Assembly (NCBI RefSeq): GCF_041929145.1
Contig: NZ_JBHFNU010000005.1
Coordinates: 84,868 to 110,476 of the forward strand
Source: Aerosakkonema sp. BLCC-F183
GTDB lineage: Bacteria > Cyanobacteriota > Cyanobacteriia > Cyanobacteriales > Aerosakkonemataceae
DNA length: 25,609 nt
Direction: 5' to 3'
The position numbers and the translations under genes were made by a program. Shown here one piece after another: positions 9,188 to 25,465 of this stretch. A model generated the notes under the pieces. The model searched no databases, was not told the origin of the DNA, and saw only the letters and a program-made list of their open reading frames with translations. Numbering within the stretch: the first letter of the stretch is position 1; each line of letters begins with the position of its first letter.

Positions 9188-9445
9188 CCCACCGACACTT
9201 ATCTCATCGTAGGGTGGGTTAGGCACGGGCAATAACTTCCACACTTTCAAGCAATAATTAACTCTCCGTGCCGTAACCCACCGACACTTATCTATAACAT
9301 ACATAAACACTTTAGCTCTTTCGGATTTATGGGTAAAAATGTTTGTTAATGTTACAGTTGAGTGTGATGGTGGGTTACGGCACGGGAACTAAATTATCGG
9401 TTGAAAGTGTTGAAATTATCGCCCGTGCCTAACCCACCCTACGCT
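9186..9445. mobile_element. MITE-like nested-palindrome repeat element, copy 1
   Basis: The outer arms are TAGGGTGGGTTAGGCACGGGCAATAA ... TTATCGCCCGTGCCTAACCCACCCTA. The inner arms are CCGTGCCGTAACCCACC ... GGTGGGTTACGGCACGG. A second homologous copy lies at 24180-24497 in the same orientation. Confidence 0.7.
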
Positions 9446-9489
9446 TAGATACTGGGCTGCTTTTACTCTTGCAGGGAATTGGTTATAAT

Positions 9490-10077
9490 ATGTCGATGAT
9501 CGAACAAGCTGCTAATTCTGTGGTACTTGCTTCTGCTTCTAAGCCGTCTGCTACTGAGGTAGTCGATGCTTTGCTTCAGGCGGAGAAAGACGCCAGAAAG
9601 AACAATTTTTCTGATTCGTTCGATCGATTAATCGGCAATTGGCGTTTATGTTTTATTACCGGGACTAAAAAAACTCGCGCTAAGGCGGGAATTGTGCTGG
9701 GTGCGGGACGCTACATTCCTCAATTTGTCAAAATTGAATTGTCTTACTCGACTGCATCTGTAGAGATAGAAGAACAGAATTTTGAAGTCGGTCAAATTGA
9801 GAATCGGGTGACGATCGGAGCGCTAAAATTAGTGGTGAGCGGGCCTGCCAAATTTTTGCACAAGAAAAACATTTTGGCGTTTGACTTTACTCGCATGACG
9901 GTGCAGTTGTTGGGAGTGACGCTGTTTTCTGGATATATTCGTTCAGGTGAGGTGAAGTCAAAACAATTTTACCATGAAAGTGTGAGCAAGCAAGCGTTTT
10001 TTGCTTATTTTTTCATCACCGATAAGGCGATCGCAGCTAGAGGTAGAGGCGGCGGTTTGGCTATCTGGGGACGGTAA
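9490..10077 (+). CDS. PAP/fibrillin-family protein (plastoglobulin-like)
   Basis: About 195 aa from the ATG at 9490 (the track ORF begins at a TTG at 9469; AGGGA lies 13 nt before the ATG). It contains the fibrillin-like motif LIGNWRLCFITGTKK (compare L.GKW.L.YTS) and its length is typical of cyanobacterial fibrillins. Confidence 0.5.
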   Translation: MSMIEQAANSVVLASASKPSATEVVDALLQAEKDARKNNFSDSFDRLIGNWRLCFITGTKKTRAKAGIVLGAGRYIPQFVKIELSYSTASVEIEEQNFEVGQIENRVTIGALKLVVSGPAKFLHKKNILAFDFTRMTVQLLGVTLFSGYIRSGEVKSKQFYHESVSKQAFFAYFFITDKAIAARGRGGGLAIWGR

Positions 10078-10117
10078 ATGTTTGGCGGCGCTTCTGCGGT
10101 TAGTGTGGGATGGCGGA

Positions 10118-10225
10118 AACCCCACCCCCAACCCCGACCCGTCCACGGGGAGGGGAGAAACAGGTGTAGGGGGAGGGGTGAAACAGGTGTAGGGGGAGGG
10201 GTGAAAGAGAGAGGGGCTTCAGGGG
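10118..10225. repeat. C-run/G-run region with a 23-nt direct repeat (GAAACAGGTGTAGGGGGAGGGGT x2), a potential G-quadruplex or long hairpin
   Basis: cccacccccaaccccgaccc followed by ggggaggggag and two copies of aaacaggtgtagggggaggggtga. It lies between the convergent fibrillin gene and the last cas-operon gene. Confidence 0.8.
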
Positions 10226-10285
10226 AAAATAAGAACTGGGAAAGAGCCGTTTTTGTTCGCGCACGGCAAAGTGCTGTGAAGATTG

Positions 10286-10906
10286 CTAATCAACGCATTT
10301 GACGCTTTTGATACTGCCATTTTTTAAGGCTGTTATTTTTACTTTTACGATCTGCCCTTGCTGGAGAGAACTCGCTTTTTTCGGTTCTTTTTCAGTCAAT
10401 TTAATCGCGCCTAATATTTGATATGTCACTTTATTACCTGCAATGCCAATAACTTGGGCATCTAAGATTTGATCGATCGCAAAATCTTGAGATTGCGTCA
10501 CTTGTAAAATTTCGGCTTGCCGAGTAGATTCTATGACAGGAGCGGTAATTTCGCCGATCGGTCCCGCTTCTTTGTAGTAGCGCATTAAGCGAATTGACCA
10601 CCCTAAAATTTGCAGGATAGCTGTTACATCATTTTGATAAAGTTGCAAATATTTGGTGCAAGTTCTTTCTATGCTATCATAATATCCAGATGTTTTTTGG
10701 CTATATCCGATTCTATTACCTTGGCGGGAAAGTGTTTGCAGATAACTAAAAAATTTCGTGCCGGCATTTTCGCGATCGCTATAAGCGCGAAGATATGCCA
10801 TCACTTTACCCAATTCATTTACATCAGTCTCTTCTTTGACCAATGTTTGAGCAATTCCGTGAGCAATTTGCCATTGAATTTCGGTTAAATCGGTGGTAGT
10901 AAACAT
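10286..10906 (-). CDS. Hypothetical protein, last gene of the type III-D-like cas operon (candidate III-D-specific accessory, Csx19-like?)
   Basis: 206 aa with ATG at 10906, immediately abutting the stop of the upstream Cas7 gene. It has a helical N-half and a beta-rich C-half (GQIVKVKITALKNGSIKSVKC). No family was recognised, and the assignment is by operon position only. Confidence 0.45.
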   Translation of the reverse strand: MFTTTDLTEIQWQIAHGIAQTLVKEETDVNELGKVMAYLRAYSDRENAGTKFFSYLQTLSRQGNRIGYSQKTSGYYDSIERTCTKYLQLYQNDVTAILQILGWSIRLMRYYKEAGPIGEITAPVIESTRQAEILQVTQSQDFAIDQILDAQVIGIAGNKVTYQILGAIKLTEKEPKKASSLQQGQIVKVKITALKNGSIKSVKCVD

Positions 10907-11947
10907 TTAATAAACTCCGTCTATAGGTTCTCTAGTTGTCGGCCATTGCAGAACTTGTTGTAACTCTTTCAATTGTTGAGATTGTACTAATTGGGTGGAT
11001 GCCGATCGCACGGCTTTTTGGATGAATTCCTGGAGGGAATTACCAGTCAGAGAAGGGGGTGAGGTGTTGTAATTGCAATAGCGATCGCGCCATTCTTTCT
11101 CTTTTTCAATCCGCTGAATTTCTGTTACTTCAACTACCATCGTTCCCATACCAATTGGTTTACCGCCTCCCACTTTTAAAGCAATGGGATTTTTACTATC
11201 TTGTCCTAACACAATCAACAGCGTTCCCAATTCGGCTAAACTTAAATTCCTAAATCCAATTTGGGTAGTAAATATCAATTCTTTTCCCGCTTGTTGAACT
11301 GGAATACCTTGTTGTCCTTTGTCAATCGATTTAACAAAATGGTAATAAAACTTGCGTCCAGCTATTCTTCCATTTATATAGTAGCCGGCACGTTGTTTTC
11401 TGGGTGCATAAAGTGAGGGCATAAATCCCACACTCCACTGTGCATTGTTGAGAATCGCATCAGAAAAGCGAATCAAACCTTGCCAATCCATTGCCCCAAA
11501 AACTTGACAAGCCGGACAAAGTTTAGTATTATCTTTACATTCCCGATAACCATTCGGAATTTGACTCTGTTCTGCCTTAGTTTTGCACAAACAACTGCGC
11601 GTAATTGCTTCATAAGTAGAACGCACAACGCCTTTAAGGGAACTTCCCGGAACGATCGACTGTCGATCGCGTCCAACGGCAGTTTTGATTAGGGGGATAT
11701 TTTTGGCATTTCCCGATAAGTCGCTACCCATTGCGACAACGCCAGAAGCGACAAAAGTAGCGGTTTTCACCGTTAAGCGCAGAAAGATTGTACCGCTAAT
11801 GCGATCGCTTTTAAACCGATCTTGTCCAATTGGTTTATCTCGCGGTGGCGGCTGACTGGGTAGAGAAATGAGTTGATAAGGTTTTGGATTAGCAGTTTCT
11901 GGTGCAGGATTAGGTTGAGGGCGTCGAATTGGTCGATTGTTAGTCAT
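10907..11947 (-). CDS. Cas7-group RAMP (Csm5/Cmr6-like) with Zn-finger insertion
   Basis: 346 aa. It has a RAMP N-terminus (PYQLISLP), a G-rich segment and the Cas7 signature IVPGSSLKGVVRS. A Cys cluster (CLCK...C...CPAC) is present. It overlaps the upstream gene by 4 nt. Confidence 0.8.
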   Translation of the reverse strand: MTNNRPIRRPQPNPAPETANPKPYQLISLPSQPPPRDKPIGQDRFKSDRISGTIFLRLTVKTATFVASGVVAMGSDLSGNAKNIPLIKTAVGRDRQSIVPGSSLKGVVRSTYEAITRSCLCKTKAEQSQIPNGYRECKDNTKLCPACQVFGAMDWQGLIRFSDAILNNAQWSVGFMPSLYAPRKQRAGYYINGRIAGRKFYYHFVKSIDKGQQGIPVQQAGKELIFTTQIGFRNLSLAELGTLLIVLGQDSKNPIALKVGGGKPIGMGTMVVEVTEIQRIEKEKEWRDRYCNYNTSPPSLTGNSLQEFIQKAVRSASTQLVQSQQLKELQQVLQWPTTREPIDGVY

Positions 11948-12459
11948 GGGGATATCTCAACAGTGAGAGCGATAAAATGTACCGTGGAAGTTTCGCGATC
12001 GATGAAATAACGTTGAGCTATTTTAACTTTGTTTGGATTATTCTTTTCATCCTTAATTATGGGATTGAGAGCGTCAGGTACAATGAATTTTTGGGGAAAC
12101 CGAGTTTCATCGGGACGATAAATGTAAGCAGGTCGTTGTTCTACTTTCCACTCTATCTTTTTATCTTGTTCCTTTTTTTTATCTCGTTCCTCATCAATAG
12201 AAGTGAAAGCAGAATCTTTACCAGTTATTGACAGCAATAATACTGAATAACCTTGACCTTGTTGTTTCCAACGCAATTCGCGATCGCAATTAAACATTTG
12301 TCCTTCTGGACTGGGAAATTCTTTTAATTCCTCTACAATTCCACTGACGCGATCTTGCCACCGAAGAAAGTAATAAGTAGGCTTTTTCGCAAATTTATCT
12401 AGCAATTTTCTGAGATCTTCAGATGAGTCAACTTGTTTAATACCTACAAAAGGATTCAT
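11944..12459 (-). CDS. Hypothetical protein embedded between Cas7 genes (candidate all1473-like III-D signature gene)
   Basis: 171 aa with ATG at 12459, coupled by 4-nt overlaps on both sides. No motif was recognised. Its position between two Cas7 genes matches the uncharacterised gene of canonical III-D loci. Confidence 0.45.
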   Translation of the reverse strand: MNPFVGIKQVDSSEDLRKLLDKFAKKPTYYFLRWQDRVSGIVEELKEFPSPEGQMFNCDRELRWKQQGQGYSVLLLSITGKDSAFTSIDEERDKKKEQDKKIEWKVEQRPAYIYRPDETRFPQKFIVPDALNPIIKDEKNNPNKVKIAQRYFIDRETSTVHFIALTVEISP

Positions 12460-13451
12460 GCTGCTGTCCCTTGCAATATTTCACACCAAGCTTCTACAGT
12501 TTGCGAGAACAATTCACGCACTTTATCGCTCCCTTCCCAACTCTGTTGCACGCCAAAATTAAACTCAATTGGTGTTGTTTTTGGTGATGTTTCTTTCAGA
12601 TCGTTAGGGGGAAAACCATAGCGGTTTCTTTCTTCATCTTCCAGAAACATTCCCGCACCCAATAAGGAAGTAAGCGGCCATTTTGTTTCTGTGCCGATCG
12701 CGCTAATTTGTTCATCTTTTATAATACAGCCAGGATATTGGACAACGGCTGAATTTAACTTAACTTCCACCAATCCCAAACCGCGAGATTTAGCGAAACC
12801 TAATCCAAACCAACCTTGATTTAAATCGCGCAATACTAAACCGATTAATCCTAATTGTGCAAGGGTAAAATTTCTGAGATGAATTTTGGTATGAAATTCT
12901 CCGGCGGTACAAACTTGAAAATTAAATGGCCCTACAGCGACCGAACCAAACACTCTGTCAATAGCTACGCCATTGCGTTCTTCAATTTTCAACAATTTGG
13001 GATTAACCGGATAAGCATCTTCTATTCTGACGCGACTGGCGATCGCAGTATTGCCAAACATTTGGGAAATAAAACAAGATTGCTTGTATAATTCCGCGCC
13101 GGGATGGGGATGATTTTTATTTTTCTTTTTCCAGTTGTCTAGGTAAAGATTGATGTTTTTTTGTTCGTCTTTGTCGTCGCTGAGAGGGTCGCTTGCCCAG
13201 ACAGTGGTAGAATTATTAGGACGGCGATCGCTTCCCACCGTCCGCACAATTCGTTCTGCATGGGCGCGAATAGCACCTTTGAGAGAACTTCCGGGTAAAT
13301 AAATTGTCCGTCCTCCGCCGTGATAGGTTTCCACAAATTCCATATCCGGTTTCGTAGGGTCAGCACCTTCTTTGCCAGATTTAATTAAGATAGGGCCAGC
13401 AGGTGTGATAGTTAATTCTATTGTACATTGATTGACAAATCGTTTAAACAT
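12456..13451 (-). CDS. Cas7-group RAMP (Csm3/Csm5-like)
   Basis: 331 aa with the Cas7 signature IYLPGSSLKGAIRAHAERI and a G-rich loop (GFAKSRGLGLVE). Confidence 0.8.
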   Translation of the reverse strand: MFKRFVNQCTIELTITPAGPILIKSGKEGADPTKPDMEFVETYHGGGRTIYLPGSSLKGAIRAHAERIVRTVGSDRRPNNSTTVWASDPLSDDKDEQKNINLYLDNWKKKNKNHPHPGAELYKQSCFISQMFGNTAIASRVRIEDAYPVNPKLLKIEERNGVAIDRVFGSVAVGPFNFQVCTAGEFHTKIHLRNFTLAQLGLIGLVLRDLNQGWFGLGFAKSRGLGLVEVKLNSAVVQYPGCIIKDEQISAIGTETKWPLTSLLGAGMFLEDEERNRYGFPPNDLKETSPKTTPIEFNFGVQQSWEGSDKVRELFSQTVEAWCEILQGTAA

Positions 13452-14319
13452 TGCTGTTTTCCTCGGCAGTGGTATTAGCAGACATAAAAGTTCTTAAATG
13501 GGTAATCAAAGCATTTGTCCATTCCTGTTTGAGGAAAGCAATTCTTTCTGGATAGCATGAGTAAATATCCATTTCTCCGTTAACCAGATTTTGCAGGTAA
13601 TTTAGTAATAACTCTGGATCGTCTTCTGCATCAAACCATTGCATTTCTTTAATATCCAATTTCACCACACCCAATCCGCGAGAACGTCCACCGCCTAACG
13701 GAATTTGTTCAGTTTCAAATTGGTGCAATCCGATGGTTAATAAACCTAATTCCCAAGCTTCGGCGTTTTCAACTACTGCTTTAAACTCAAATTGCGTTCC
13801 TGCCGGTACAACTTGAAAATCGTATAATTTCGCATCAGCAGCAGTTTCGGTATCGCGATCGATCGCAACTCCATCTCGTTCTTGATATTGTCCAAACCAA
13901 CTATCTAGTAATACCGTTAAATCTCGTACTTGAAATTTACTGGCGATCCAAGGAGAACCGAATAAGCGAGAAACTAAATCGGTTTCTTTTAAAATTGCAG
14001 TGGTGAGGTCAAAATCATCTTTGTTTTCGTCCTTAAGTTGCTTGATTTCATCAGCTTTTAGCGACCATTCATCCTCTACGGCGGGATTGGCGACTAATTT
14101 GCGATCGCTTCCCACAATCCCGCGCAGGAAGCTTTCTAAACGCGATCGCAAAGCACCTTTAAAACTCGACCCCGGAATTAAAGGTCGTCCTACCGCATCT
14201 TTAATTACTGGTAAATCCGAACCAATTGGTTCTGTGGAACGTCCCGCGCCAATTCGCAAAGCGGTGATAGTTGTGAGAGTTCCGGTGATTTCCAAACGAC
14301 TTTTGAAAGTATCAAACAT
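13444..14319 (-). CDS. Cas7-group RAMP (Csm3/Cmr4-like backbone subunit)
   Basis: 291 aa with the N-terminus LEITGTLTTITALRIGAGR ... PLIPGSSFKGALRSRLESFL and a C-terminal G-rich loop GGGRSRGLGVVKL. A SD-like AGGTGGA precedes the ATG at 14319. Confidence 0.85.
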   Translation of the reverse strand: MFDTFKSRLEITGTLTTITALRIGAGRSTEPIGSDLPVIKDAVGRPLIPGSSFKGALRSRLESFLRGIVGSDRKLVANPAVEDEWSLKADEIKQLKDENKDDFDLTTAILKETDLVSRLFGSPWIASKFQVRDLTVLLDSWFGQYQERDGVAIDRDTETAADAKLYDFQVVPAGTQFEFKAVVENAEAWELGLLTIGLHQFETEQIPLGGGRSRGLGVVKLDIKEMQWFDAEDDPELLLNYLQNLVNGEMDIYSCYPERIAFLKQEWTNALITHLRTFMSANTTAEENSNV

Positions 14320-14339: not shown

Positions 14340-15500
14340 TTACTTTTTAATGCCTTCTCTTTTGTAAATATACTCATGTGTTCCGTAGTATCGCAGAGAT
14401 AATCTTCCTCCATCTGCAACTTTGCAGCTAACTCGTCGAGTCTGAGCCGTAATGTTGATATGGTCGATATTTGTATTCTGATATCTACGAAGCCTCAGAA
14501 TATCATCGTCTTTCAAAGCGCTGATCCCATCTCCATGTTTGAATAATAGGTAAGCTGCTCTAGCTAGCCTTTCTTGCAACTGAATCCTTTCCTGAATGTC
14601 TAAAGTATTTTGGTAATCTTTGCAAAAGCTTTGTTCATAATCCAATTTAGGAAATTTGACTAAATCTTCCGAAAGTAACTCGTCTTTGCATTGATTCCAA
14701 ATCAATTTTCCCCATGTCGATAAAGTCATTTCTTTGCCATCAACCAAAACCCATTCTTCCGGGACTTTCTTTGCTTCTTCCCAAGATGTAGGAATTTCTC
14801 CAACATCCATCATTGCTAGTTGTACTTTGTATGGCTCAACCTTGGAGCGATCTACCTTTACAGGAAGTTGTGGAATTTTGATTACTTCATTCGATCCCTC
14901 AAAAACATAGACAATTTCATTAGCATAAAACATTCCAATGGTATTGAAGTAGCCTTGCAAAGCTTTGAATCCACCAACTAAATTGAAATAAATCTGGTAT
15001 TTGCTACTTTTAGAAGCAATAATTATTTCTTGCAGTGTGGGAATTAATTTTGCCATTCCCTCTATAAAGGTAGCGCTACTGGCGATGGACAGTCCAGGCT
15101 GTATACAAGTACTGGTGTTATTCAATCCGTTACTTTTCAAAAATGACTCTACAATGTTTGCAGTAACTCTAGCTTGTGCTGTGTCAGTAGCAACTAATAA
15201 ATGAGTATCTTCTGTACCCTGTTCTAGTTTATTATTGTACAAACCATAGATGCCATTCAGTTCCGCGCTCAACTCTCGGATTTCTTCAAGCTCGGTATCG
15301 TCATTGTAAAGCTTTTCTTCCGCCCTATTCTTCAACTTTTCAATAATATGGGAAATATCCTCATGATATTTTTTTATTTCATCAACAGTATAATTTGCAG
15401 TTTGCTGTAGGCACTTAGACCAGCTATCTGGATCGATATCGCGGTCAATTTGATTGGTCAATAAACTTGTACCGACAGTGGAAATTACGAGTCGAGGCAT
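14340..15500 (-). CDS. CARF-domain protein with C-terminal putative HEPN-like domain (Csm6/Csx1-type cOA-activated effector candidate), embedded in the effector operon
   Basis: 386 aa with ATG at 15500 and AAGGAG upstream. The N-terminal Rossmann strand MPRLVISTVGTSLL and the later NLVGGFKALQGY motif match the CARF core signature (hhhhS.G.S ... TGG[TF]K). The C-terminal region carries RYYGTH (R-x4-H), which is compatible with a HEPN RNase motif. Confidence 0.55.
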   Translation of the reverse strand: MPRLVISTVGTSLLTNQIDRDIDPDSWSKCLQQTANYTVDEIKKYHEDISHIIEKLKNRAEEKLYNDDTELEEIRELSAELNGIYGLYNNKLEQGTEDTHLLVATDTAQARVTANIVESFLKSNGLNNTSTCIQPGLSIASSATFIEGMAKLIPTLQEIIIASKSSKYQIYFNLVGGFKALQGYFNTIGMFYANEIVYVFEGSNEVIKIPQLPVKVDRSKVEPYKVQLAMMDVGEIPTSWEEAKKVPEEWVLVDGKEMTLSTWGKLIWNQCKDELLSEDLVKFPKLDYEQSFCKDYQNTLDIQERIQLQERLARAAYLLFKHGDGISALKDDDILRLRRYQNTNIDHINITAQTRRVSCKVADGGRLSLRYYGTHEYIYKREGIKK

Positions 15501-15534: not shown

Positions 15535-15951
15535 CTAAATTTCACCTTTATTTTTGTATACCAGATAGCGTGCGCCATAACCAAGATAGCGACGGGTTAG
15601 CTCTAGCCAAATTTGGTTATATTCATCAACTTCAGCCGCTTTTGCTATTTCTTTAGCAGCCTCCTTAATGTCTTTATCGATGTTACGAATAATTTTTGCT
15701 GCTAAAGATTGTTCGCCTTTACCCCACTTTTTGTCACGCCCTACCTGATAACGCAAAAAGTTTTTGATTACTTCTGTGCTTTCAGTTGTATCAGCAACTC
15801 TTAGAAGATTACGAAATTGGGATTCTTGTAAATCACCATAAGAGCTTTTATCATCTAAAGCATCTTGGATCTTAGTCACTAGCTTATCCTCAGCTTGGCG
15901 AATACCTTTTTGAATCTTGAGTTGTTTTTGCGGATCGAATGGTTCGTTCAT
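15535..15951 (-). CDS. Cas11-like small subunit (Csm2/Cmr5-type, alpha-helical)
   Basis: About 138 aa from the ATG at 15951, which forms an ATGA overlap with the Cas5 stop (the track start at 15990 is TTG). It is small, Lys/Glu-rich and helical, and sits directly after Cas5 as in III-D loci. Confidence 0.5.
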   Translation of the reverse strand: MNEPFDPQKQLKIQKGIRQAEDKLVTKIQDALDDKSSYGDLQESQFRNLLRVADTTESTEVIKNFLRYQVGRDKKWGKGEQSLAAKIIRNIDKDIKEAAKEIAKAAEVDEYNQIWLELTRRYLGYGARYLVYKNKGEI

Positions 15952-17222
15952 ACAGGTTCCTCCTGAAATACAAGATGAAATTCGTTGCAAACTTCAATTT
16001 GACCGAAGCCTTCACAGGTGCGATCGCCGACACCTACAATCTCTAAATTTTCTAATGCTTTCATCCAAGCATCTCGTTGTGCAGTGCTAAATAAATACAC
16101 CGCTCCTTTATTAGTTATCAGTTCCACATCTTTCATCAATCCCCAAGCAGAATTCCAGCCAGAACGATAGTCATAGCTACTATACGCTGCTTCAAGTTTT
16201 AAGGTGGAATCTTTAACGCCAGTAAACTTTTTTAGCATTTCTTCCGAAATTACAGTGGTACCCTGCCAGTTATCGGTCAAAATCGCCTCAGAGTGTAAAT
16301 CCAAAGAAAAGTAGGTGCGATCGATCGCCAATTCTTTTAAAGGACTACCAAATACTCTCCATTCCTTCCAACGTTGTCCAAGTTTTTCATTAAAATTCTC
16401 GACTTTTGCAACTACATTGGGTTTAATATCTACAATTTTAGCTTGAATTTTGACTTTTCCCAACCCGCGTGAAGTAGAACCACCTAAGCGGAAATTTTCA
16501 CTGCGATCGAGAATAAATTGCGTCAGAGAATCTGCCAAACTATCTTCTACCAAAATTGAGCCGCAGTAAATAACAGGTTTGGGCTTTTTACCTTTCGATT
16601 CAGATTCATTCAGAACTTCTATGCTGTAAAGTATTTCCTCTTCAGCCGTAGCCAGTCTTCGATTAATACCTACTCGTGTTAATAGGCGTTTATTAACACT
16701 ATGAGCGTGATATTTATCATTGAGTTTGCTGTAAAAACAACTATGTGCATCGACTCGCCCTCCGTCTGTTGGACAATTGGGATCGTAGGGATAACCGTAA
16801 CCTTCAGCACAGAAGCGATCGATCAGAGTATCGAAAACGCCGTTACTTCCTTTTTTAGACGTAAACCCAGAGCTATTTTTAGAACTCAGCGCAGTAGTAG
16901 GTAGCACCCTAACTTCTGGTTGTAATATAGTTTTATCCTTTATTTCTATAGTTGCAGGATAAGCATTTTGAAAAATTGCGGGAGTATCATCAAGAAATAA
17001 AGCCTGAAAATCACCGCCATTTTCTGAGAAATCTTGGCTCCATTCCTGCTGTTGTTCGCTTTGTTGTAGCTGACGATATTTTTGCAAAATTTGAGCGGCA
17101 ATTGCACCCCGAATTACGCTTCCGGGAATATAACTTTCTACTTCGCTAATTGAACCGCCTGGTTTCTGGCGTGCTATTGCCAGAGGAGATAAAGCTTTAA
17201 TTTCTAATAGAATGCGCTTCAT
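15948..17222 (-). CDS. Cas5-group RAMP (Csx10/Csm4-like)
   Basis: About 424 aa from the ATG at 17222, which forms an ATGA overlap with the upstream stop (the track start at 17252 appears to be TTG). It has LEIKALSPLAIARQ...YIPGSVIRGAIAAQ, reminiscent of the Csm4 L.L.F.SPLHIG...IPGS.IKG pattern, and a C-terminal G-rich loop GGSTSRGLGKV. Confidence 0.65.
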   Translation of the reverse strand: MKRILLEIKALSPLAIARQKPGGSISEVESYIPGSVIRGAIAAQILQKYRQLQQSEQQQEWSQDFSENGGDFQALFLDDTPAIFQNAYPATIEIKDKTILQPEVRVLPTTALSSKNSSGFTSKKGSNGVFDTLIDRFCAEGYGYPYDPNCPTDGGRVDAHSCFYSKLNDKYHAHSVNKRLLTRVGINRRLATAEEEILYSIEVLNESESKGKKPKPVIYCGSILVEDSLADSLTQFILDRSENFRLGGSTSRGLGKVKIQAKIVDIKPNVVAKVENFNEKLGQRWKEWRVFGSPLKELAIDRTYFSLDLHSEAILTDNWQGTTVISEEMLKKFTGVKDSTLKLEAAYSSYDYRSGWNSAWGLMKDVELITNKGAVYLFSTAQRDAWMKALENLEIVGVGDRTCEGFGQIEVCNEFHLVFQEEPV

Positions 17223-17959
17223 TGCACCCTTCCTTTTGCCAAGAATTGCCAAACAGTTTCATCCACTTGAATTTCAGGTAAATCCCAATGTAACCAACCT
17301 AAACCCGCAGATTTACTGCCGCCCAGTGCGTGAATATGCCGCAAACCAGCCCAAATCAGCGCTTTAGCATAATCAGGTCGATCGGGTGTTACGGGTGTTA
17401 GGCTTGGTTGGATGTGAATATTACCCTCAAATCTGAGTTTAAGATTTACGGGAGAGGTTTCCAAAAAGTAAAGTTTTTTCTCCTCCGCAGTGCGGCGACG
17501 GCGATTAATCGTCACACCCGGACGGATAACTTCAGGTAAATTTTCAGGGTCTTCTGTGCAAACTAAATCATCAAAGATTACTCGTGATGGTAAAACCGGA
17601 TCGCCAAATATTTGGCTAATTAAACAGTGATATGTTTCATTATACCCTGCAACTTGATACTCGCTACGACAAAATTCGCTCGGTGAACTTTCTCGCCGTA
17701 AAACCATTTTTTTAGGGCTAGGAGATTTACAAATTGCCCAACCCAAAGCCCTTGCAAATTTTTCGCATTCATGGCGCAGGCGACCCTTGACTTGAGAGCC
17801 AGGAATTAGCAGATTTGTTTGGGAGTCTCGAACAATCGGTTTATCTGCTAGGGAACTAGAAGAACCACCAGCACCTACACACAAAGCCGTATCAATTATA
17901 GCAGTAATTTTGTGTGTTTCTACTTCAATTAAATTTGATAAATTTCTGAGAAATATCAT
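17219..17959 (-). CDS. Cas7-group RAMP, small (Csm3-like)
   Basis: 246 aa with CVGAGGSSS...LLIPGSQVKGRLRHE. Its start overlaps the cas10 stop (TGATG). Confidence 0.75.
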   Translation of the reverse strand: MIFLRNLSNLIEVETHKITAIIDTALCVGAGGSSSSLADKPIVRDSQTNLLIPGSQVKGRLRHECEKFARALGWAICKSPSPKKMVLRRESSPSEFCRSEYQVAGYNETYHCLISQIFGDPVLPSRVIFDDLVCTEDPENLPEVIRPGVTINRRRRTAEEKKLYFLETSPVNLKLRFEGNIHIQPSLTPVTPDRPDYAKALIWAGLRHIHALGGSKSAGLGWLHWDLPEIQVDETVWQFLAKGRVQ

Positions 17960-20346
17960 CAGTCAGCCTCCTGAGTTACAAGTCTTTCCTGGGATGTTCC
18001 AGAATCTTCAGATGTCTCAATGAAGTCATAGAGGTCTACCAGTTCTCGCCAAATTGTTTCGTAGGTTGTCTCTCCTGGTTCTAGAATGGACATCCAAGGA
18101 GCTAGATTACCCTTATTATTTTGCTCTTTTGGTTGACACCAAGCTTCTTCAAACTTTTCTTTTAATTCTTGTTGTCCTTGCTGGAGTCGAACTCGAAAAT
18201 AACGGTAGTTAAGAATAGCGGTATGCTTGCCCCGTTCCAGTAGATCGCGAATTTGGTACAGTTGCGATCGCGGAAATTTTGCCTTGTTCAATGCGTCGAT
18301 TGTCTCAATCAATCCTCCTAATTCATGCAAAGTATAAGGGGCCGCATATAGCTTTAAAGTAGGAGTGTGTATGTCCTTAATTTTCACCTCTGGATTTTTA
18401 ATTAATGCCTGCTTTCTGAACTCGTCGATATCGGATGAAATCATCGTTACAGCTTTCAGCACTAAAAAATCAACCGTACCGCCACAATAGCCATATTTTC
18501 TCAACTTCTTTGCCTTGCTTTTAGCAGATTTAAGTAACTGCTCATAAAGGTTTTTTGCGTAGTAAATAGGAGTGTTGTAAGCTGTAATCAACACGCCGCT
18601 CGATATACTTAGTTGACACTGAGAAAGTTCTGCTTTTTCGCTTGAGTAGCGGTGGCATTTTTTGAGGTCAATTGGCTTTTCAGATTGCTTAGTATGATAG
18701 TTGCCTTGAATTTCTACACCTGCCAGAGATACTTGTTTGAGGAGGATTTTTTCAAACTGCTCGCCAATCATTTTAGCGATCGCCAATGCCTGAGAAGCTG
18801 GCACAATCAAAATAATATCATCTCCGCCAATCGTAATAATTTCAAAGGGATGAATGAAATCACCATCCTGCCATCTTGAATCTGGATCTTTAATTCCTCT
18901 AATCTGGCGGGGATGAAGATTATATGCTAAGGCTTGATAAACAGCATACTCAGTTGCGTTGGCCACATCTTCGCTAAACTCTTTGTATTTTTCTGGCGTA
19001 GTGCATATTTTCTGAATAAATCCTCCCATGTTGTTGCCATCAGCATAAATATAGGCAACAAAACCATTGCTGACATTGCCTAAATGCGTTAATGATTTAG
19101 CAATTTTAACATCATCCTGTTGGCAGGTTTGATAATATTGCTGACATTGCTCGGAATTTTTCTGTAAAAATTCCTCGAATTTGTCAACCCAACCTTCTAT
19201 TATTCCAGGTTGCCATTCTAGCCCGGTATTTTTGTACCATTCTGGTGTTTTAGCTAATCCCGTTTTAGCGCGATCGCCTACTCGTCTTTTACGTGCAGAA
19301 ACTTCAGAAAATTGAGATTCGCTGGGCAATAAAGGTGGCTGAACGATCGCCACAGCAGATCTGCGATCGCCTTCATCCCTTCTCAAATAAGGATGAGTTT
19401 CAAACATCGGTGGGTAGCGGCGACTGGGGCGATCGGGAAAATCATTTCCACTGCGGCGTTGATTAAACAGAATCGCCAATTTAGTTGTTAATTCATTAAA
19501 ACTTTTCCGGTTAGCAAAAGCTTCTTCAACAGATACCGGATCGCTAATACATGGCTCATTTGGCTTTTTCTCCAAGTTGCCAAAGTAAGCCCGAACCAAT
19601 GGTTTATTATATTCTTGACGATACCGCTCTAACCAGAAATTATTTTCAATGGGGTCTTGTAGCAGACCAAATCGAGTTTCCATTAACCTAAAGGTATCGG
19701 CGACTGCACAGGAATTAGCTGCTAAAGTTTCCTCGGTGTAACGCTTTTCAATAGCATTAGCTAAGTCATCTGCAAAAGCCGCTGGGCAAAACGCCAGAAT
19801 ATTACCGCCAGTTGAGTAGATGATTAGTTCAGGAATTAACGCATCTGAAAATTTTGGTTCATTAGGAAAGTTGTCGTTAAGCCATGTTCTTACTTCTTGA
19901 CACTGGATAGTGTAGTTGTAGAGAATTGATTCAGGGTTTTTGTTAAAAAAAGCAGGCAAATCGCTCAGATTGATTCGATCTAGTAGTGCAGAAGCACCCC
20001 GAATATCTGGGAGTTTTGCCGCTTCAAATACGTATTGTTTAATCTTGGTTGCACCGCCGTAAACCAAGCCTATTCGAGAGTTCCAAAGGATAGAATGCTG
20101 TTCGGCCAATAACTTTAACTCATCTAACGTTTTGGGAAACTTTAGAGTTTCTAATTGCTTGACTTGTTCGAGGAGCGATCGCATTTTTTCTGGAATATCT
20201 GTCCCAGCGTGCAATGCTTCCCGCATCTGGTGCAATTCCTTGATATCAAATTGCGGTTGGCGCTGTTCTCCCCAAGCCAGACACCAGGCGATTCCAACGA
20301 AAAGCTTTCCTGATGCTGTCTTTATGTCTTGTTGAAAGTTACTCAT
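17959..20346 (-). CDS. cas10: Cas10 large subunit of a type III CRISPR-Cas effector complex (III-D-like, no recognisable N-terminal HD domain, intact GGDD cyclase motif)
   Basis: 795 aa with ATG at 20346. The palm/cyclase motif FEIITIGGDDIILIVPASQALAIA is present. No H..HD..D motif is found in the first ~150 aa. It is the first gene of a coupled RAMP operon with the order cas10-cas7-cas5-cas11. Confidence 0.85.
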   Translation of the reverse strand: MSNFQQDIKTASGKLFVGIAWCLAWGEQRQPQFDIKELHQMREALHAGTDIPEKMRSLLEQVKQLETLKFPKTLDELKLLAEQHSILWNSRIGLVYGGATKIKQYVFEAAKLPDIRGASALLDRINLSDLPAFFNKNPESILYNYTIQCQEVRTWLNDNFPNEPKFSDALIPELIIYSTGGNILAFCPAAFADDLANAIEKRYTEETLAANSCAVADTFRLMETRFGLLQDPIENNFWLERYRQEYNKPLVRAYFGNLEKKPNEPCISDPVSVEEAFANRKSFNELTTKLAILFNQRRSGNDFPDRPSRRYPPMFETHPYLRRDEGDRRSAVAIVQPPLLPSESQFSEVSARKRRVGDRAKTGLAKTPEWYKNTGLEWQPGIIEGWVDKFEEFLQKNSEQCQQYYQTCQQDDVKIAKSLTHLGNVSNGFVAYIYADGNNMGGFIQKICTTPEKYKEFSEDVANATEYAVYQALAYNLHPRQIRGIKDPDSRWQDGDFIHPFEIITIGGDDIILIVPASQALAIAKMIGEQFEKILLKQVSLAGVEIQGNYHTKQSEKPIDLKKCHRYSSEKAELSQCQLSISSGVLITAYNTPIYYAKNLYEQLLKSAKSKAKKLRKYGYCGGTVDFLVLKAVTMISSDIDEFRKQALIKNPEVKIKDIHTPTLKLYAAPYTLHELGGLIETIDALNKAKFPRSQLYQIRDLLERGKHTAILNYRYFRVRLQQGQQELKEKFEEAWCQPKEQNNKGNLAPWMSILEPGETTYETIWRELVDLYDFIETSEDSGTSQERLVTQEAD

Positions 20347-20662: not shown

Positions 20663-21220
20663 CTATTGAGGTTTGAGAAAGAGGTTTAACTCCAAATGGA
20701 AGATGTTGCGAATCTTAAGCAACAAACATACACCAGCGTGCGGAATCTTTGCCATATCCCGCAGAGTCGGACATAATCCATTTACAGCCACATTTTCAAC
20801 TGCTGAACTTATAATTTCAACAGGCTGCTTCTCCGATTTGTTGGTAGGGTGGTTTGTAGGATGGAATTCCAGGCTTTGCGGGTGATGGAGTGGCGCTTTT
20901 GCTTGTGAAGTGAGCAAGATGCCCAAATCTGTAGTCGCCCATGTTGGCTGCCCTATAATGGGTGTAGCCGCGAGAACAGCTTGCTTCCCCTCTCCAAAAA
21001 CTAAAATCGTTGATGGAGAAAAAACCTTTGAGATTGAGCCAGGATTGTACGAAAGGCTCAAATTACCTAACAACCCACAGGTTAAATTGCTGGATTGTTG
21101 ATTTTGTAAGGTTTGGAGGAAACAAGCTGTTCTCGCTGGGCTTTGAGTAGTTAATTGAGTTTGGAAAGTTATCTCGCTTAAGGAAGCGTTTTTTGTCAAC
21201 TTTGGTATTGCTTGAGGCAT
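20663..21220 (-). CDS. Hypothetical Ser/Thr/Gln-rich protein upstream of cas10
   Basis: 185 aa ORF with ATG at 21220, no clear SD and low complexity (HPTNHPTN). It could be non-coding leader or promoter space instead. Confidence 0.25.
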   Translation of the reverse strand: MPQAIPKLTKNASLSEITFQTQLTTQSPARTACFLQTLQNQQSSNLTCGLLGNLSLSYNPGSISKVFSPSTILVFGEGKQAVLAATPIIGQPTWATTDLGILLTSQAKAPLHHPQSLEFHPTNHPTNKSEKQPVEIISSAVENVAVNGLCPTLRDMAKIPHAGVCLLLKIRNIFHLELNLFLKPQ

Positions 21221-21684: not shown

Positions 21685-22281
21685 TTACGAACTCGCCATC
21701 GCACCTTGCTGCAACTCTCTCACCACCCATTCCAATTCCTCCACCATCCAACTGCTACTCAACTGGCGGTAAATCTGCAATTGTTCTTGATAAAGCCATA
21801 ACACCCCTTCCTTACCGCCTCGGAAATAATGCCAAATTTCTTCGCCAAATTGCCTAAAATTAACCAACATAGTCCGCGCATTGTGCAACTTATCCGCCAG
21901 CATCACCCTTTGCACTGGCGGACAAGCATCTCGTAGCTGTTGGAGATATTGCTGTTTGTGTTCTTTCCAAGTCGGATATAAACTCGGTTCTGGCTCGGTG
22001 CAACCTTCTATAATATGGAAAACGCGATCGCCAAATCGCTGCAAAATTTCCGCCTTCGTTACTTCTCCCCCTCGGTCTTCCAGCGCATCGTGCAATAAAG
22101 CGGAAATTGCCTCATCTTCATCTCCTCCATCTTCCAACACCAAAGCCGCTACGCTCAACAAATGGGCAATATAAGGAGTACCTGTAATTTTCCGTTGTTG
22201 GTCGCCATGAAGTTGCGCCGCATATACCAACGCTTCCTGAAAACGCGAAGTTAAAATTGTCAAACACCGTTCATTCTTCAT
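21685..22281 (-). CDS. Small alarmone hydrolase-type HD-domain protein (RelA/SpoT hydrolase fold, Mesh1/SAH-like)
   Basis: 198 aa with ATG at 22281. The HD motifs LHGDQQRKITGTPYIAHLLSVAALV and AISALLHDALEDRGG match the (p)ppGpp-hydrolase HD_4 signature. It overlaps the upstream WYL gene by 11 nt. Confidence 0.8.
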   Translation of the reverse strand: MKNERCLTILTSRFQEALVYAAQLHGDQQRKITGTPYIAHLLSVAALVLEDGGDEDEAISALLHDALEDRGGEVTKAEILQRFGDRVFHIIEGCTEPEPSLYPTWKEHKQQYLQQLRDACPPVQRVMLADKLHNARTMLVNFRQFGEEIWHYFRGGKEGVLWLYQEQLQIYRQLSSSWMVEELEWVVRELQQGAMASS

Positions 22282-23686
22282 AAATTTTCCATTCTTTTTC
22301 GACTTCTCTCTTCGCCTGTTCTCGTAATTCCACAGGGAGGAGAATTTCTACATTCGGTCGCCACGCACGCAAGCGCTGCATTACGTTAGGATCGCCTTGG
22401 CGATATTGCGCTTGGTAATAAGCATCTTGGGGAGAACATTTGCGCCAAATATTTAACATCTTTTGTTGTTGTTCTCCCTTTAAGTTCTGCCGAATTAATC
22501 GTTCTACTTCTTGATATGCCACTCGCGCAAAGGTAGCATGGCGCATAGTATTGCGGATGTAGCGATTATCCCACTCGCGATCGAACCTCAATAGTAGCAG
22601 TTGTGGGGGTTGATAGTAATCAAAACCCCAAACTTCTGCGATCGCTAATTGGATATCATCGGGAATAGGCAGAGTCTTCTTTTGATATCGCCGTTTCAGC
22701 GCCACCGGAACTTGCGGATCGTCCCAACTCAAAGGGATCGAATCCTGAATGCGATCGAGCCGATAATTGCGAAAATCTAATTTTCCCGATTCGTCTTGCG
22801 GAACTTCGCCAAACGCACACAAATACGGCCCTCTCTGATAATAATAAATGCAAACGGGATAAACTACCACCGACAAAGTTGTTTGCCATACCGCACTTTC
22901 ATAACTTAACAAAATCGGCGGTACAACTTCCTGTTGCCAAAGTTCCCGCAGTTGTGCTTGCCATTCTTCGACACGATCGATCGAGTCTTGCGGAATCACA
23001 TATTCCAGATGGATAAAAAAGCGCTGCTGACCATTCAATCGCGTGGAAAGATTATCTGCGATCGCAGCCAAATCCGGTTGCGTGAGAAAATCCAAATTGT
23101 AAGCTATCAGACGAGAATCTGATTTTTGGATCGAACTCGGCGTCCGTGGATATTTCTTAACCCGATAATACCGATTTCCTTGGCGTTTCAGCCACCCGAT
23201 TTCTATCAAAACTTGCAAATCGCCATAAAGCGATCGTCTTGTCAAGCCAAACAAACGAGTATCGTGCAACAATTCTTTAAGGTTATCCGGTAACAAATGA
23301 TGTTCCCGCAAAGATTGTTCAAACGATCGCTCTTTTTCCTGTACTTCCGGCTTCCCTAATTCCCCTTTCCACTTTGACTGAGTTAAATTGAAATCAGAAC
23401 CAAATAACCAAGCAGCAACAGTTTTCGCACAACGGCATTTCGGGTCGTGCAACGCCGGAATTTCTTCTTCTCTAGTATGAGTCGCAGTAAAAAAAGCATC
23501 TCGCCATTCAGGATAAGTAAAATTTTCCGGCAAATTCAACTTAATGCCGGCTTCCCCATACAGAAAGTGCAACCACACCCACAACCGCACCGCCTGTAGC
23601 AATCTTTGTTTTAAATCTCCCCGCGCCAGCCATTGCAGCAGTTCCACACGAGGAGGTTCATTCCAAAAGGGGTTGACCGTTTCCAA
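22271..23686 (-). CDS. WYL-domain protein with winged-HTH (putative ligand-sensing transcriptional regulator associated with the type III locus)
   Basis: 471 aa with an apparent TTG start. A wHTH-like segment RLFGLTRRSLYGDLQVLIEIGWLKRQGNRYYRV is present. The WYL-domain core YPVCIYYYQRGPYLCAFGE...GKLDFRNYRLDRIQDSIPL matches the P..L.y..g.WYL.a....R.FRLdRI consensus. Confidence 0.6.
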   Translation of the reverse strand: METVNPFWNEPPRVELLQWLARGDLKQRLLQAVRLWVWLHFLYGEAGIKLNLPENFTYPEWRDAFFTATHTREEEIPALHDPKCRCAKTVAAWLFGSDFNLTQSKWKGELGKPEVQEKERSFEQSLREHHLLPDNLKELLHDTRLFGLTRRSLYGDLQVLIEIGWLKRQGNRYYRVKKYPRTPSSIQKSDSRLIAYNLDFLTQPDLAAIADNLSTRLNGQQRFFIHLEYVIPQDSIDRVEEWQAQLRELWQQEVVPPILLSYESAVWQTTLSVVVYPVCIYYYQRGPYLCAFGEVPQDESGKLDFRNYRLDRIQDSIPLSWDDPQVPVALKRRYQKKTLPIPDDIQLAIAEVWGFDYYQPPQLLLLRFDREWDNRYIRNTMRHATFARVAYQEVERLIRQNLKGEQQQKMLNIWRKCSPQDAYYQAQYRQGDPNVMQRLRAWRPNVEILLPVELREQAKREVEKEWKIYEE

Positions 23687-23799
23687 GCTACTCTCCCGAT
23701 TTCAGCGATTTGCCTTCCTTTCTAAGTATGCCTCATCTTGGAAGCAGGTGCTTCCACCAGTTTGATACAGTAGCAATAACTCAATGAACCTATTATTTA

Positions 23800-24156
23800 A
23801 TGTCAGCCATTCAATTACAACTGTTTCGGGAGCAAATCCAGTCAGGTCTGGCCTACCAACACCTGCACATCCAAATCAACACACCGGATGGACTGATTGC
23901 ACCAGCCGACCTGAAAAATTTATCTCTACCGGAGGAAATGGTCTGGAGTCAAGGCGTTGTCATTGAAGGTAAAGCGCCAATTTGGTTGTACGCCTATTTA
24001 GTTCACGCTTGTCACCCCGCCGCTTGGGTAGCTTGCTTCGACCCCCGCTTAGAAGGTGCAGTTATAATTGCTACACACAGTCGCCAAGTCGCACTCGGAG
24101 ATATTCTCAAACTCAACTTACCCGCAGCCATATTTCGCAAAACAACAGGTACGTAG
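23800..24156 (+). CDS. Csx3-like (Crn3-type ring nuclease candidate) stand-alone domain protein
   Basis: 118 aa with ATG at 23800. It is paralogous to the N-terminal ~115 aa of the 24533 gene (GKAPIWLYAYLVHACHPAAWVACFDPRLEGAVIIATHS versus GIAPTWLYANLVERCWQAPWIGCYTAPKNQIVVIQS). The stand-alone plus NTPase-fused pair next to a type III locus is the arrangement reported for Csx3 in cyanobacteria. Confidence 0.4.
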   Translation: MSAIQLQLFREQIQSGLAYQHLHIQINTPDGLIAPADLKNLSLPEEMVWSQGVVIEGKAPIWLYAYLVHACHPAAWVACFDPRLEGAVIIATHSRQVALGDILKLNLPAAIFRKTTGT

Positions 24157-24179
24157 TGATAATAAAAACTTTTTAATAG

Positions 24180-24497
24180 TAGGGTGGGTTAGGCACGCGC
24201 AATAATTTCAATACTTTCGATCGATAATTAAGTTCCCGTGCCGTAACCCACCATCCCACCTACCTGTAACATTGACAAACATTTTCCACCATAAACCCTC
24301 TAGACCCGAAGATTGTACCCTATCAACCCAAAAGAACCAAGCGTTAAAACGCAACAACATACGAAGGTCTGTAAATCTAGCTCTTTCAAGTTTATGCTTC
24401 GCTTTTGTAACAGACAATTGTGATGGTGGGTTACGGCACGGACAGTTAATTATTAGTTTTTTGAGAGAAATTATCGCCCGTGCCTAACCCACCCTAC
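24180..24497. mobile_element. MITE-like nested-palindrome repeat element, copy 2
   Basis: TAGGGTGGGTTAGGCACGCGCAATAA ... CCCGTGCCGTAACCCACC ... GGTGGGTTACGGCACGG ... TTATCGCCCGTGCCTAACCCACCCTA. It is homologous to copy 1 with a longer central segment, and it is inserted between the two Csx3-like genes. Confidence 0.7.
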
Positions 24498-24532
24498 TGC
24501 TAAATCCAAAAAACTCAACAAAAGGAATAAAA

Positions 24533-25465
24533 ATGAATACGATCGCCTTACAAAAACAAGTTGAACTGCAAGTCACCGAACTGAAAACCGCACAAGGAAG
24601 TTATCAAACTTTGGCGATTAGCTTAGTGATGTTCCAGGAACTAATAAAAACTGATGTACTCGCACAATTGAAACTTCCTGACGAACTAGACTTGAGCAGA
24701 GAAGTAATTTTATACGGTATAGCTCCTACTTGGTTGTATGCCAATTTAGTAGAACGCTGTTGGCAAGCGCCTTGGATAGGATGCTATACAGCGCCAAAAA
24801 ATCAAATTGTTGTAATTCAAAGTCGGATATCAACAATAAGTATAGGCGATGCGATACCTGTATTGCTTAACAACATTCCTTGTCCGGCAATTTTAATAGG
24901 TGGTTCGCCTGACAGCGGCAAAAGCGTTTTATCGAATGCTTTGCGTTTTAATTTGATGAAAACCGGAGCATTCAAACGAGTATTTGTACATCGCGCTTCT
25001 TGGGATGGTGAGGGAAATTGGGTTTACGAAGTAGCGAATCGGGATTTAGCTAAAAAGCTGATTGTAGAAAACGAGTTTCGATTGCACGAAAATCCCGAAA
25101 CGGCGAAGTTAATACCGAAATTCTTTAAATATCATAGCTCGGCGGTACAGAATTTGCGGGAAGTTGTCGATTTGGTTTTGGTTGATGTGGGTGGTAAACC
25201 GCAGCAAGAGAAAGCGCCTCTGGTCGCACAATGTACGCACTATATAATTATTAGTAAAGAATCAGATGAGATTCCCAAATGGCACGAGCTTTGTCATCCA
25301 ACTTTGCAGCCGTTAACGGTGATTCACAGCGTCCGACAAAAACGAGAAGAAGTTTGGCAAAAACAACCTTTTTTGGAAATCATCGACGGACGCTGGTGCG
25401 AAGGTGAAATCCAGTCTGTTCCCGATATCTTGCTGGAAAATGTGCTTAGGGTTTTGCACGCCTAG
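24533..25465 (+). CDS. Csx3-like N-terminal domain fused to a P-loop NTPase (Csx3-AAA-type accessory protein)
   Basis: 310 aa with ATG at 24533 and AAAGGAA upstream. Residues ~1-115 are paralogous to the 118-aa ORF. Walker A ILIGGSPDSGKSVLSNAL and a Walker-B-like hydrophobic strand DLVLVDVGG are present. Confidence 0.5.
   Translation: MNTIALQKQVELQVTELKTAQGSYQTLAISLVMFQELIKTDVLAQLKLPDELDLSREVILYGIAPTWLYANLVERCWQAPWIGCYTAPKNQIVVIQSRISTISIGDAIPVLLNNIPCPAILIGGSPDSGKSVLSNALRFNLMKTGAFKRVFVHRASWDGEGNWVYEVANRDLAKKLIVENEFRLHENPETAKLIPKFFKYHSSAVQNLREVVDLVLVDVGGKPQQEKAPLVAQCTHYIIISKESDEIPKWHELCHPTLQPLTVIHSVRQKREEVWQKQPFLEIIDGRWCEGEIQSVPDILLENVLRVLHA

Follow-up and report, generated by a model that had tools for sequence, protein, structure and literature searches.

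The closest described relatives of the locus considered here are the Csx10-containing CRISPR systems of type III-D, and above all the III-Dv system of Synechocystis. Csx19 was originally recognized, under the name 'all1473', as a family of Csx10-containing systems (PMC3150331); for Synechocystis III-Dv Csx19, cryo-electron microscopy (cryo-EM) structures and a deletion phenotype have been reported, and the description of Csx19 as a base subunit between Cas5 and Cas10 that is required for assembly comes from that system only (PMC11026444). An S1 domain has been noted as 'forming two distinct fusions' in Csx10 systems (Makarova et al. 2011), and for a further family, Csx21, Shah et al. 2019 (PMC6546367) give no more than the labels 'Type III-D associated' or 'unknown', the searchable literature assigning it no function. 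Here, we analyze a 25,609-nucleotide stretch of the Aerosakkonema sp. BLCC-F183 genome (contig NZ_JBHFNU010000005.1, positions 84,868 to 110,476; hereafter the window), focusing on two small genes that lie among Cas7 genes and encode proteins of 206 and 171 amino acids (aa). The two genes lie in the 3′ end of a cyanobacterial III-D1 effector operon and belong to already named families: the 171-aa protein is a divergent cyanobacterial Csx19 (all1473 family) and the 206-aa protein is Csx21. The joint explanation that we favor, and consider rather probable, is of a III-D1 operon in which csx19 provides a structural bridge and csx21 a two-domain subunit that docks on the complex and binds single-stranded RNA (ssRNA).

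A first-pass annotation of the window had described the two genes as joined to neighboring Cas7 genes by junctions of 0-4 nt, and both the open reading frames (ORFs; Table 1) and the junction sequences bear this out. Read from the sequence, the stop codon of cas7c and the start codon of the 171-aa gene overlap in an ATGA (12456-12459), as do the stop of the 171-aa gene and the start of cas7d (11944-11947), and the TAA of cas7d is followed at a 0-nt gap by the ATG of the 206-aa gene (10907/10906), with a GGAG 10 nt upstream; these junctions suggest that csx19, cas7d and csx21 are translationally coupled. Each of the two proteins has a 100% identical counterpart among Aerosakkonema 'hypothetical proteins'. 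Homologue clusters number 588 for the 206-aa protein (approximately 250 representatives at 50% identity) and 127 for the 171-aa protein, and the gene order is kept in 80 genome loci and 61 metagenome loci; with so many homologue clusters and a conserved order, both ORFs are genuine genes and not chance occurrences. A Pfam scan of either protein gave no RAMPs match and nothing above threshold (iPGM_N and SigX lay far below their cut-offs), in agreement with the earlier statement that neither carries RAMP signatures, and phmmer searches of either protein against PDB sequences returned nothing relevant. The suggestion that both are dedicated type III-D factors also stands: both fall in type III-D families, no housekeeping profile matched, and both are retained in orthologous loci.

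The assignment of the 171-aa protein to Csx19 is carried by profiles, fold and gene position. It matches three PADLOC Csx19 profiles over nearly its full length, PDLC01391 (Table 1), PDLC01027 (3e-45) and PDLC01034 (2.6e-23), while its NCBIfam TIGR03984 score, 12.6 bits (E = 0.079), stays below the cut-off of 35 and so is not an equivalog-level match. When a profile of 42 homologues was compared with PDB sequences, the sole match was chain B of the Synechocystis III-Dv structure (8s9t_B, E = 0.34), with a shared F..ELRW motif. The AlphaFold2 (AF2) model is confident (predicted local distance difference test, pLDDT, 88; predicted template modeling score, pTM, 0.84), and in a Foldseek search of the PDB it retrieved the solved Csx19 chains 8s9u_B (E = 2e-5) and 8s9t_B (2.6e-5) at probability 1.0 and template modeling (TM) scores of 0.53-0.57, the next match lying at E = 0.33. 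The gene sits between the penultimate Cas7 (Cas7c) and the terminal Cas7 (Cas7d) of a csx10-type III-D operon. Conservation of this arrangement was assessed in loci anchored on Csx21, of which 80 were retrieved and the 75 with at least 1.2 kb of upstream sequence were counted; Csx19 is present in 72 of these 75, in the same order. By homology with III-Dv, the protein would be a beta-rich structural subunit wedged at the complex's base between Cas5 (Csx10) and Cas10, contacting the CRISPR RNA (crRNA) there and needed for assembly of the complex. With high confidence, its most likely role is thus that of an assembly-critical bridge between Cas5/Csx10 and Cas10.

The 206-aa protein matches Csx21 from end to end: residues 6-205 align with positions 1-200 of the 201 in PADLOC PDLC01516 (Table 1), and two further Csx21 profiles match strongly (PDLC01485, 1.3e-89; PDLC01042, 1.3e-71). 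The match to the Csx21 of Shah et al. 2019 (clusters 28 and 173; CYB_0586, Adeg_0988) is likewise full length, with the same type III-D association, and the protein has no Pfam or NCBIfam family. Its AF2 model (pLDDT 89) comprises five helices (9-113), a low-confidence linker, a further helix (127-139) and a five-stranded barrel (147-205). The C-terminal domain is modeled as an oligonucleotide/oligosaccharide-binding (OB) barrel similar to S1 domains, and S1/OB similarity is all that Foldseek reports for the protein (probability 0.99-1.0, E = 2e-3 to 8e-2). Aligned with the canonical S1 domains of relatives, the barrel of the window protein gives an hhalign probability of 79% (E = 1.6e-5, 31% identity). 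It is basic, with an isoelectric point of 9.4; across 62 sequences, K173 and K176 are kept as K or R in 80% or more, and Y162 is conserved too. The S1 component of Csx21 is not in itself new, since S1 fusions had already been noted in Csx10 systems.

An indication of what the C-terminal position does comes from its exchange in relatives. Among 150 Csx21-family representatives at 50% identity, 72 combine the N-domain with the barrel, 34 consist of the N-domain only, 33 join the N-domain to a different C-terminal part, nine have the barrel only or place it behind other domains, and two carry barrel and N-domain behind other domains (CHAT-TRADD_N-Csx21). Pfam recognizes S1 in nine, a cold-shock domain (CSD) in three and OB_RNB in two of 34 relatives in which an N- or C-domain is combined with other sequence, and the swapped C-terminal parts reach 1.9e-38 for S1 (PF00575) and 8.5e-25 for the CSD. 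A search of 5.8 billion proteins with an N-domain profile, the best 120 matches of which were all strong family members, brought to light a large subgroup of approximately 196 aa in which the N-domain is combined with a CSD; in one type III-D1 locus from a different assembly (L090), such a variant occupies the same slot after the last Cas7. That ssRNA-binding OB folds repeatedly take one another's place here argues strongly, if circumstantially, for binding of single-stranded RNA at this position. Together with the fold, the basic barrel and residues K173, K176 and Y162, these S1/CSD substitutions suggest that the barrel of the window protein may do so too.

Both domains are also found in fusions. 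In locus L001 and on Anabaena cylindrica PCC 7122 pANACY.01, the terminal TIGR03986 Cas7 carries the barrel, together with the helix before it, as a C-terminal fusion, in III-Dv-like operons that contain csx19 and lack the N-domain. Full-length Csx21 is the last part of CHAT-TRADD_N-Csx21 fusions of approximately 495 aa in L156 (825-2309) and L002 (202-1692), and the L156 gene directly follows a terminal type III-D Cas7.

Synteny places Csx21 next to the same Cas7 in most loci. In the Csx21-anchored set, Cas7d lies upstream of Csx21 on the same strand in 73 of the 75 loci, at 150 bp or less in 65; in the remaining eight the gap holds only Uma2 or HigB/HigA-like toxin-antitoxin inserts. Where enough downstream sequence was available in metagenome loci anchored on Csx19, the order Csx19, Cas7d, Csx21 was found in 38 of 39, with Csx21 identities down to 35%. 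The inserts (L005, L010, L039, L045, L050, L056, L068 and L072) are either Uma2-family endonuclease-like genes (approximately 200 aa) or two paired genes resembling HigB/HigA (99 and approximately 143 aa); considered as functional partners, the intervening genes of these eight loci were rejected as selfish elements.

The synteny, the CSD variant in the same slot and the Cas7 and CHAT fusions together favor a Csx21 that acts beside Cas7d, at the crRNA's 3′ end. With moderate confidence, we infer that Csx21 is an accessory subunit that docks on the complex and binds ssRNA; its incorporation into the complex, its RNA binding and its place there are all proposed. The helical domain would dock on the effector beside Cas7d, at the crRNA 3′ end, where it could act as a specialized cap or extension of the Cas11 filament, while the OB barrel, joined to it by the flexible linker, would grip ssRNA, whether that of the target, on its way into or out of the duplex, or that of the crRNA 3′ end. 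A more specific version, which we advance tentatively and hold to be less likely than not, is that Csx21 is a second, specialized small subunit of bacterial III-D1 effectors, a Cas11 paralogue that caps the minor filament next to the terminal Cas7 and carries an exchangeable OB module for ssRNA (mini-S1, canonical S1 or CSD), and whose docking module in some lineages brings a caspase-like CHAT protease to the complex.

The resemblance to Cas11 was examined at the level of both structure and sequence. The modeled N-domain is a five-helix bundle that can be superimposed on Csm2, Cmr5 or Cas11 by one structural method. Among 26 N-domain relatives, weak PADLOC matches comprise two to Csm2 PDLC01504 (best 1.1e-3), one to PDLC01503 (0.015) and one to Cmr5 (0.02), and a non-significant alignment of the N-domain with Cas11 is colinear and pairs the C-terminal motifs ILGWxxRLMRYY and YLGYGARYLxY. 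The N-domain gave no Pfam or NCBIfam Csm2/Cmr5 match, and profiles of the N-domain and of whole Csx21 found only designed helical repeats and chance matches among PDB sequences. A Cas11-like fold of the N-domain is thus a putative assignment, made from a single structural method and weak sequence hints and short of established homology. Neither the Cas11-like reading of the N-domain nor the dissection of Csx21 into such a domain and a minimal S1 module was found in the searchable literature. As the III-Dv chains are not matched by Csx21 profiles, the Cas7-insertion protein of Synechocystis has no detectable Csx21-type barrel; a profile search likewise detected no similarity between its unresolved N-terminal 112 residues and the Csx21 N-domain. 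The idea that N-domain-only forms of Csx21 replace Cas11 in some loci is not supported by those with sufficient context, a separate Cas11-like gene being present in L090, L092 and L094.

Several observations weigh against the proposal, and most of them are equally what one would expect if Csx21 were not a stable subunit. In that alternative, which we regard as doubtful and yet as the strongest of the rivals, Csx21 is a free or transient RNA-binding accessory or adaptor (an RNA chaperone for crRNA 3′ maturation, a binder of cleaved target, or an adaptor that brings other effectors such as CHAT proteases to activated complexes, for example) and the resemblance to Cas11 is convergent, that of a generic five-helix bundle. 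Foldseek lists no Cas11 among its top 50 matches to Csx21, and hhalign of the N-domain against the Cas11 family of the operon gives a probability below 1% (E = 0.07-0.19), so that neither supports homology with Cas11. The solved III-Dv complex has no Csx21 and works without it (PMC11026444), and the only label given by Shah et al. is 'Type III-D associated' or 'unknown' (PMC6546367). Orphan copies of Csx21 lie away from cas genes in L017 and L028; N-domain-only relatives are found upstream of cas10 or beside RT-Cas1, where RT is reverse transcriptase, and not after Cas7; S1-bearing variants adjoin SAVED-TIR or SAVED-Lon genes; and the C-terminal barrel occurs in a non-CRISPR conflict island (L089). 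The CHAT fusions can also be read in this way. Three further points count against the proposal on their own: the operon already encodes a canonical Cas11, the window protein falls below the Pfam S1 (PF00575) threshold and has no Pfam match at E ≤ 0.1, and Csx21 is not universal in type III-D, a plasmid-wide tblastn search having returned three records only. What argues against a free accessory is the position of the gene and its fusions: csx21 is packed at 0 nt at the end of the effector operon, and not among the signaling genes, its slot after the terminal Cas7 is almost invariant, and two independent genomes encode the barrel as a covalent extension of the terminal Cas7.

Some of the relatives just mentioned have features of their own. 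The N-domain-only relatives are 111-113 aa long, and each overlaps the start of another gene, an RT-Cas1 fusion in L085 (271-606) and cas10 in L084 (447-788), a context unlike that of full-length Csx21. L089 (10001-12577) encodes a protein of 858 aa in which CHAT and DUF1257 are joined to the Csx21 C-terminal barrel; CHAT-NB-ARC, CHAT-iSTAND, JAB/ThiF and AAA plus VWA genes are its neighbors, and its N-terminal region resembles that of a 555-aa protein encoded beside the orphan Csx21 in L028 (11725-13392).

It is improbable that Csx21 is instead a regulator of the locus, whose S1/CSD-type domain binds the operon mRNA or the pre-crRNA leader and so tunes expression. The idea draws on the classic role of S1 and cold-shock domains in mRNA binding and on their interchangeability at this position, and some JGI records call homologues 'nucleoid DNA-binding protein'; this label, however, has no profile match behind it, Csx21 contains no helix-turn-helix (HTH) or other regulator domain, an HTH-WYL regulator is already encoded upstream, and the fusion partners are Cas7 and CHAT, not regulators.

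Finally, a reading of both proteins as all1473/Csx19-type, that is, as two paralogues of one family, is hardly credible: in its favor are their small size, the lack of RAMP signatures and their location amid Cas7 genes, but they match different PADLOC families at very low E values with no cross-hits, their predicted folds are unrelated (beta-rich Csx19 versus a helical bundle plus OB barrel), and the PDB neighbors of the two models differ. The 206-aa protein as Csx19 is thereby refuted by PADLOC family, AF2 fold and PDB neighbors alike. The all1473/Csx19 assignment suggested in the first-pass annotation accordingly holds for the 171-aa protein, which Foldseek pairs with solved Csx19 chains, and fails for the 206-aa protein, for which Foldseek lists S1/OB domains and no Csx19. 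Its description of the two proteins as uncharacterized was overstated for Csx19, with its cryo-EM structures and deletion phenotype (PMC11026444); the earlier interpretation as a whole is partly supported.

The features of the operon are collected in Table 1. All genes are on the minus strand, tightly packed from 20346 to 10286, in the order listed. Against PDB sequences, Cas7c matches the second half of Cas7-2x (8s9t_D, 1.6e-12), and phmmer matches Cas7d to the last Cas7 domain of Cas7-11 and to the III-Dv Cas7-insertion protein (8s9t_E, 5.6e-12); these matches identify the operon as the III-D1 counterpart, with unfused genes, of the III-Dv operon of Synechocystis.

Table 1. Genes of the type III-D1 effector operon and predicted domains of Csx21 (window coordinates)
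Feature	Coordinates	Strand	Supporting match
cas10	17959..20346	-	TIGR02577 4.2e-47; Pfam Cas10-Cmr2_palm2; GGDD in sequence
cas7a	17219..17959	-	Pfam RAMPs 4.2e-19
csx10 (Cas5 of type III-D)	15948..17252	-	TIGR02674 4e-132
cas11/csm2 small subunit	15535..15951 (ORF as listed: 15535-15990)	-	PADLOC Csm2 3.9e-60
CARF-RelE (Csm6-like) signaling effector	14340..15500	-	PADLOC CARF7--CARF_RelE 3.8e-123; Pfam Cas_APE2256
cas7b (Csx7)	13444..14319	-	TIGR02581 2.6e-76
cas7c, third Cas7, upstream neighbor of csx19	12456..13451	-	Pfam RAMPs 3.4e-27
csx19, 171 aa	11944..12459	-	PADLOC Csx19 PDLC01391 7e-51
cas7d, terminal Cas7, TIGR03986-like without large insertion	10907..11947	-	Pfam RAMPs 3.4e-12; TIGR03986 9.7e-41
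csx21, 206 aa, last gene of effector operon	10286..10906	-	PADLOC Csx21 PDLC01516 5.9e-90
Csx21 N-terminal domain, residues 1-116, five-helix bundle, Cas11-like predicted fold	10559..10906	-	
Csx21 C-terminal domain, residues 141-206, five-stranded minimal S1/OB barrel, isoelectric point 9.4	10289..10486	-	

The start listed for cas11 is a TTG at 15990; an ATG at 15951 overlaps the csx10 stop codon (ATGA) and has a GGAGGA upstream, and since the PADLOC match runs from residue 15 on and homologues are 135-155 aa long, the start is probably at 15951 (138 aa). Signaling genes are interleaved with effector genes, CARF-RelE lying inside the operon between cas11 and cas7b, and an HD protein, an HTH-WYL regulator, Csx3 and Csx3-AAA are encoded upstream (21685-25465). 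In 58 of 69 related loci, cas7b and cas7c are more than 400 bp apart, the space being occupied in the loci examined by a PD-(D/E)xK gene of approximately 206 aa (PADLOC PD_DExK 9.6e-45 for the L001 copy); the window lacks this gene, and its cas7b and cas7c overlap (13444-13451). Neither internal promoter enrichment nor a terminator was found in 9900-12700, and when the junctions and the 3′ flank were scanned for promoters, terminators and RNA folds, nothing rose above background; the window contains no Rfam match and no CRISPR array. The 3′ flank of csx21 holds 2.6 copies of a 23-bp tandem repeat, GGGGAGGGGTGAAACAGGTGTAG (10147-10206), with no terminator-like site and an ordinary fold (z = −0.8). 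Putative genes flank the operon on either side (20663-21220, minus strand, 185 aa; 9469-10077, plus strand, 202 aa), neither with a PADLOC match and the 202-aa ORF also without a Pfam match. Two copies of an element that resembles a miniature inverted-repeat transposable element (9206-9442 and 24176-24497), approximately 15 kb apart in the same orientation and each with the terminal inverted repeats GTAGGGTGGGTTAGGCACGGGC ... GCCCGTGCCTAACCCACCCTAC, enclose nearly all of the type III-D module, csx21 through the first csx3, between them.

The immediate outcome is a correct label for each gene, Csx19 and Csx21 in place of two 'hypothetical proteins', and, for Csx21, a structural hypothesis that can be tested. 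Searches of the solved structures and the literature library yielded no structure in which a bacterial multi-subunit III-D1 effector contains both Csx19 and Csx21. Should Csx21 prove to be a Cas11-like subunit that bears an OB domain and sits at the crRNA 3′ end, class 1 effectors would gain a new kind of subunit; this would also be relevant to target-RNA capture by III-D1 complexes that have no Cas7 'insertion' domain, and would point to a way in which type III complexes acquired proteases.

Set beside the fused III-Dv operon of Synechocystis PCC 6803, the window is colinear except for the embedded CARF-RelE gene and the extra csx21, and its partner proteins are separate polypeptides where those of III-Dv are fusions. 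The two Csx19 proteins (that of Synechocystis being chain B of 8S9T/8S9U) share fold, F..ELRW motif and gene position, and are both beta-rich and similar in size. Their sequence identity, however, is only approximately 15%, and the window protein has two extra low-confidence loops (approximately residues 86-103 and 120-145) and, unlike its Synechocystis counterpart, falls below the TIGR03984 cut-off, as a member of a cyanobacterial subfamily caught by PADLOC PDLC01391. For Csx21, the nearest comparisons are with parts of other proteins. The Cas11 small subunits (Csm2, Cmr5 and the SsoCsm type III-D Cas11, 8BMW chain A) have no significant profile similarity to it, and Csx21 differs from them in its extra OB barrel and in being encoded besides a canonical cas11 in the operon. 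Relative to S1 and cold-shock OB folds, its barrel is shortened to approximately 60 residues, with trimmed loops and a GNKVTY...LTEKEPKK signature of its own. Csx29 is a TPR-CHAT protease that docks on Cas7-11 in type III-E. The CHAT-TRADD_N-Csx21 variants are alike in placing a caspase-like protease after the terminal Cas7, joined to a putative docking module, and if Csx21 is indeed a second small subunit, Csx21-CHAT would be an independent, multi-subunit counterpart of Cas7-11/Csx29; the Csx21 of the window, unlike Csx29, carries no protease, so that for this locus neither a protease activity nor a substrate is implied, and its putative docking module is a Cas11-like bundle and not a TPR domain.

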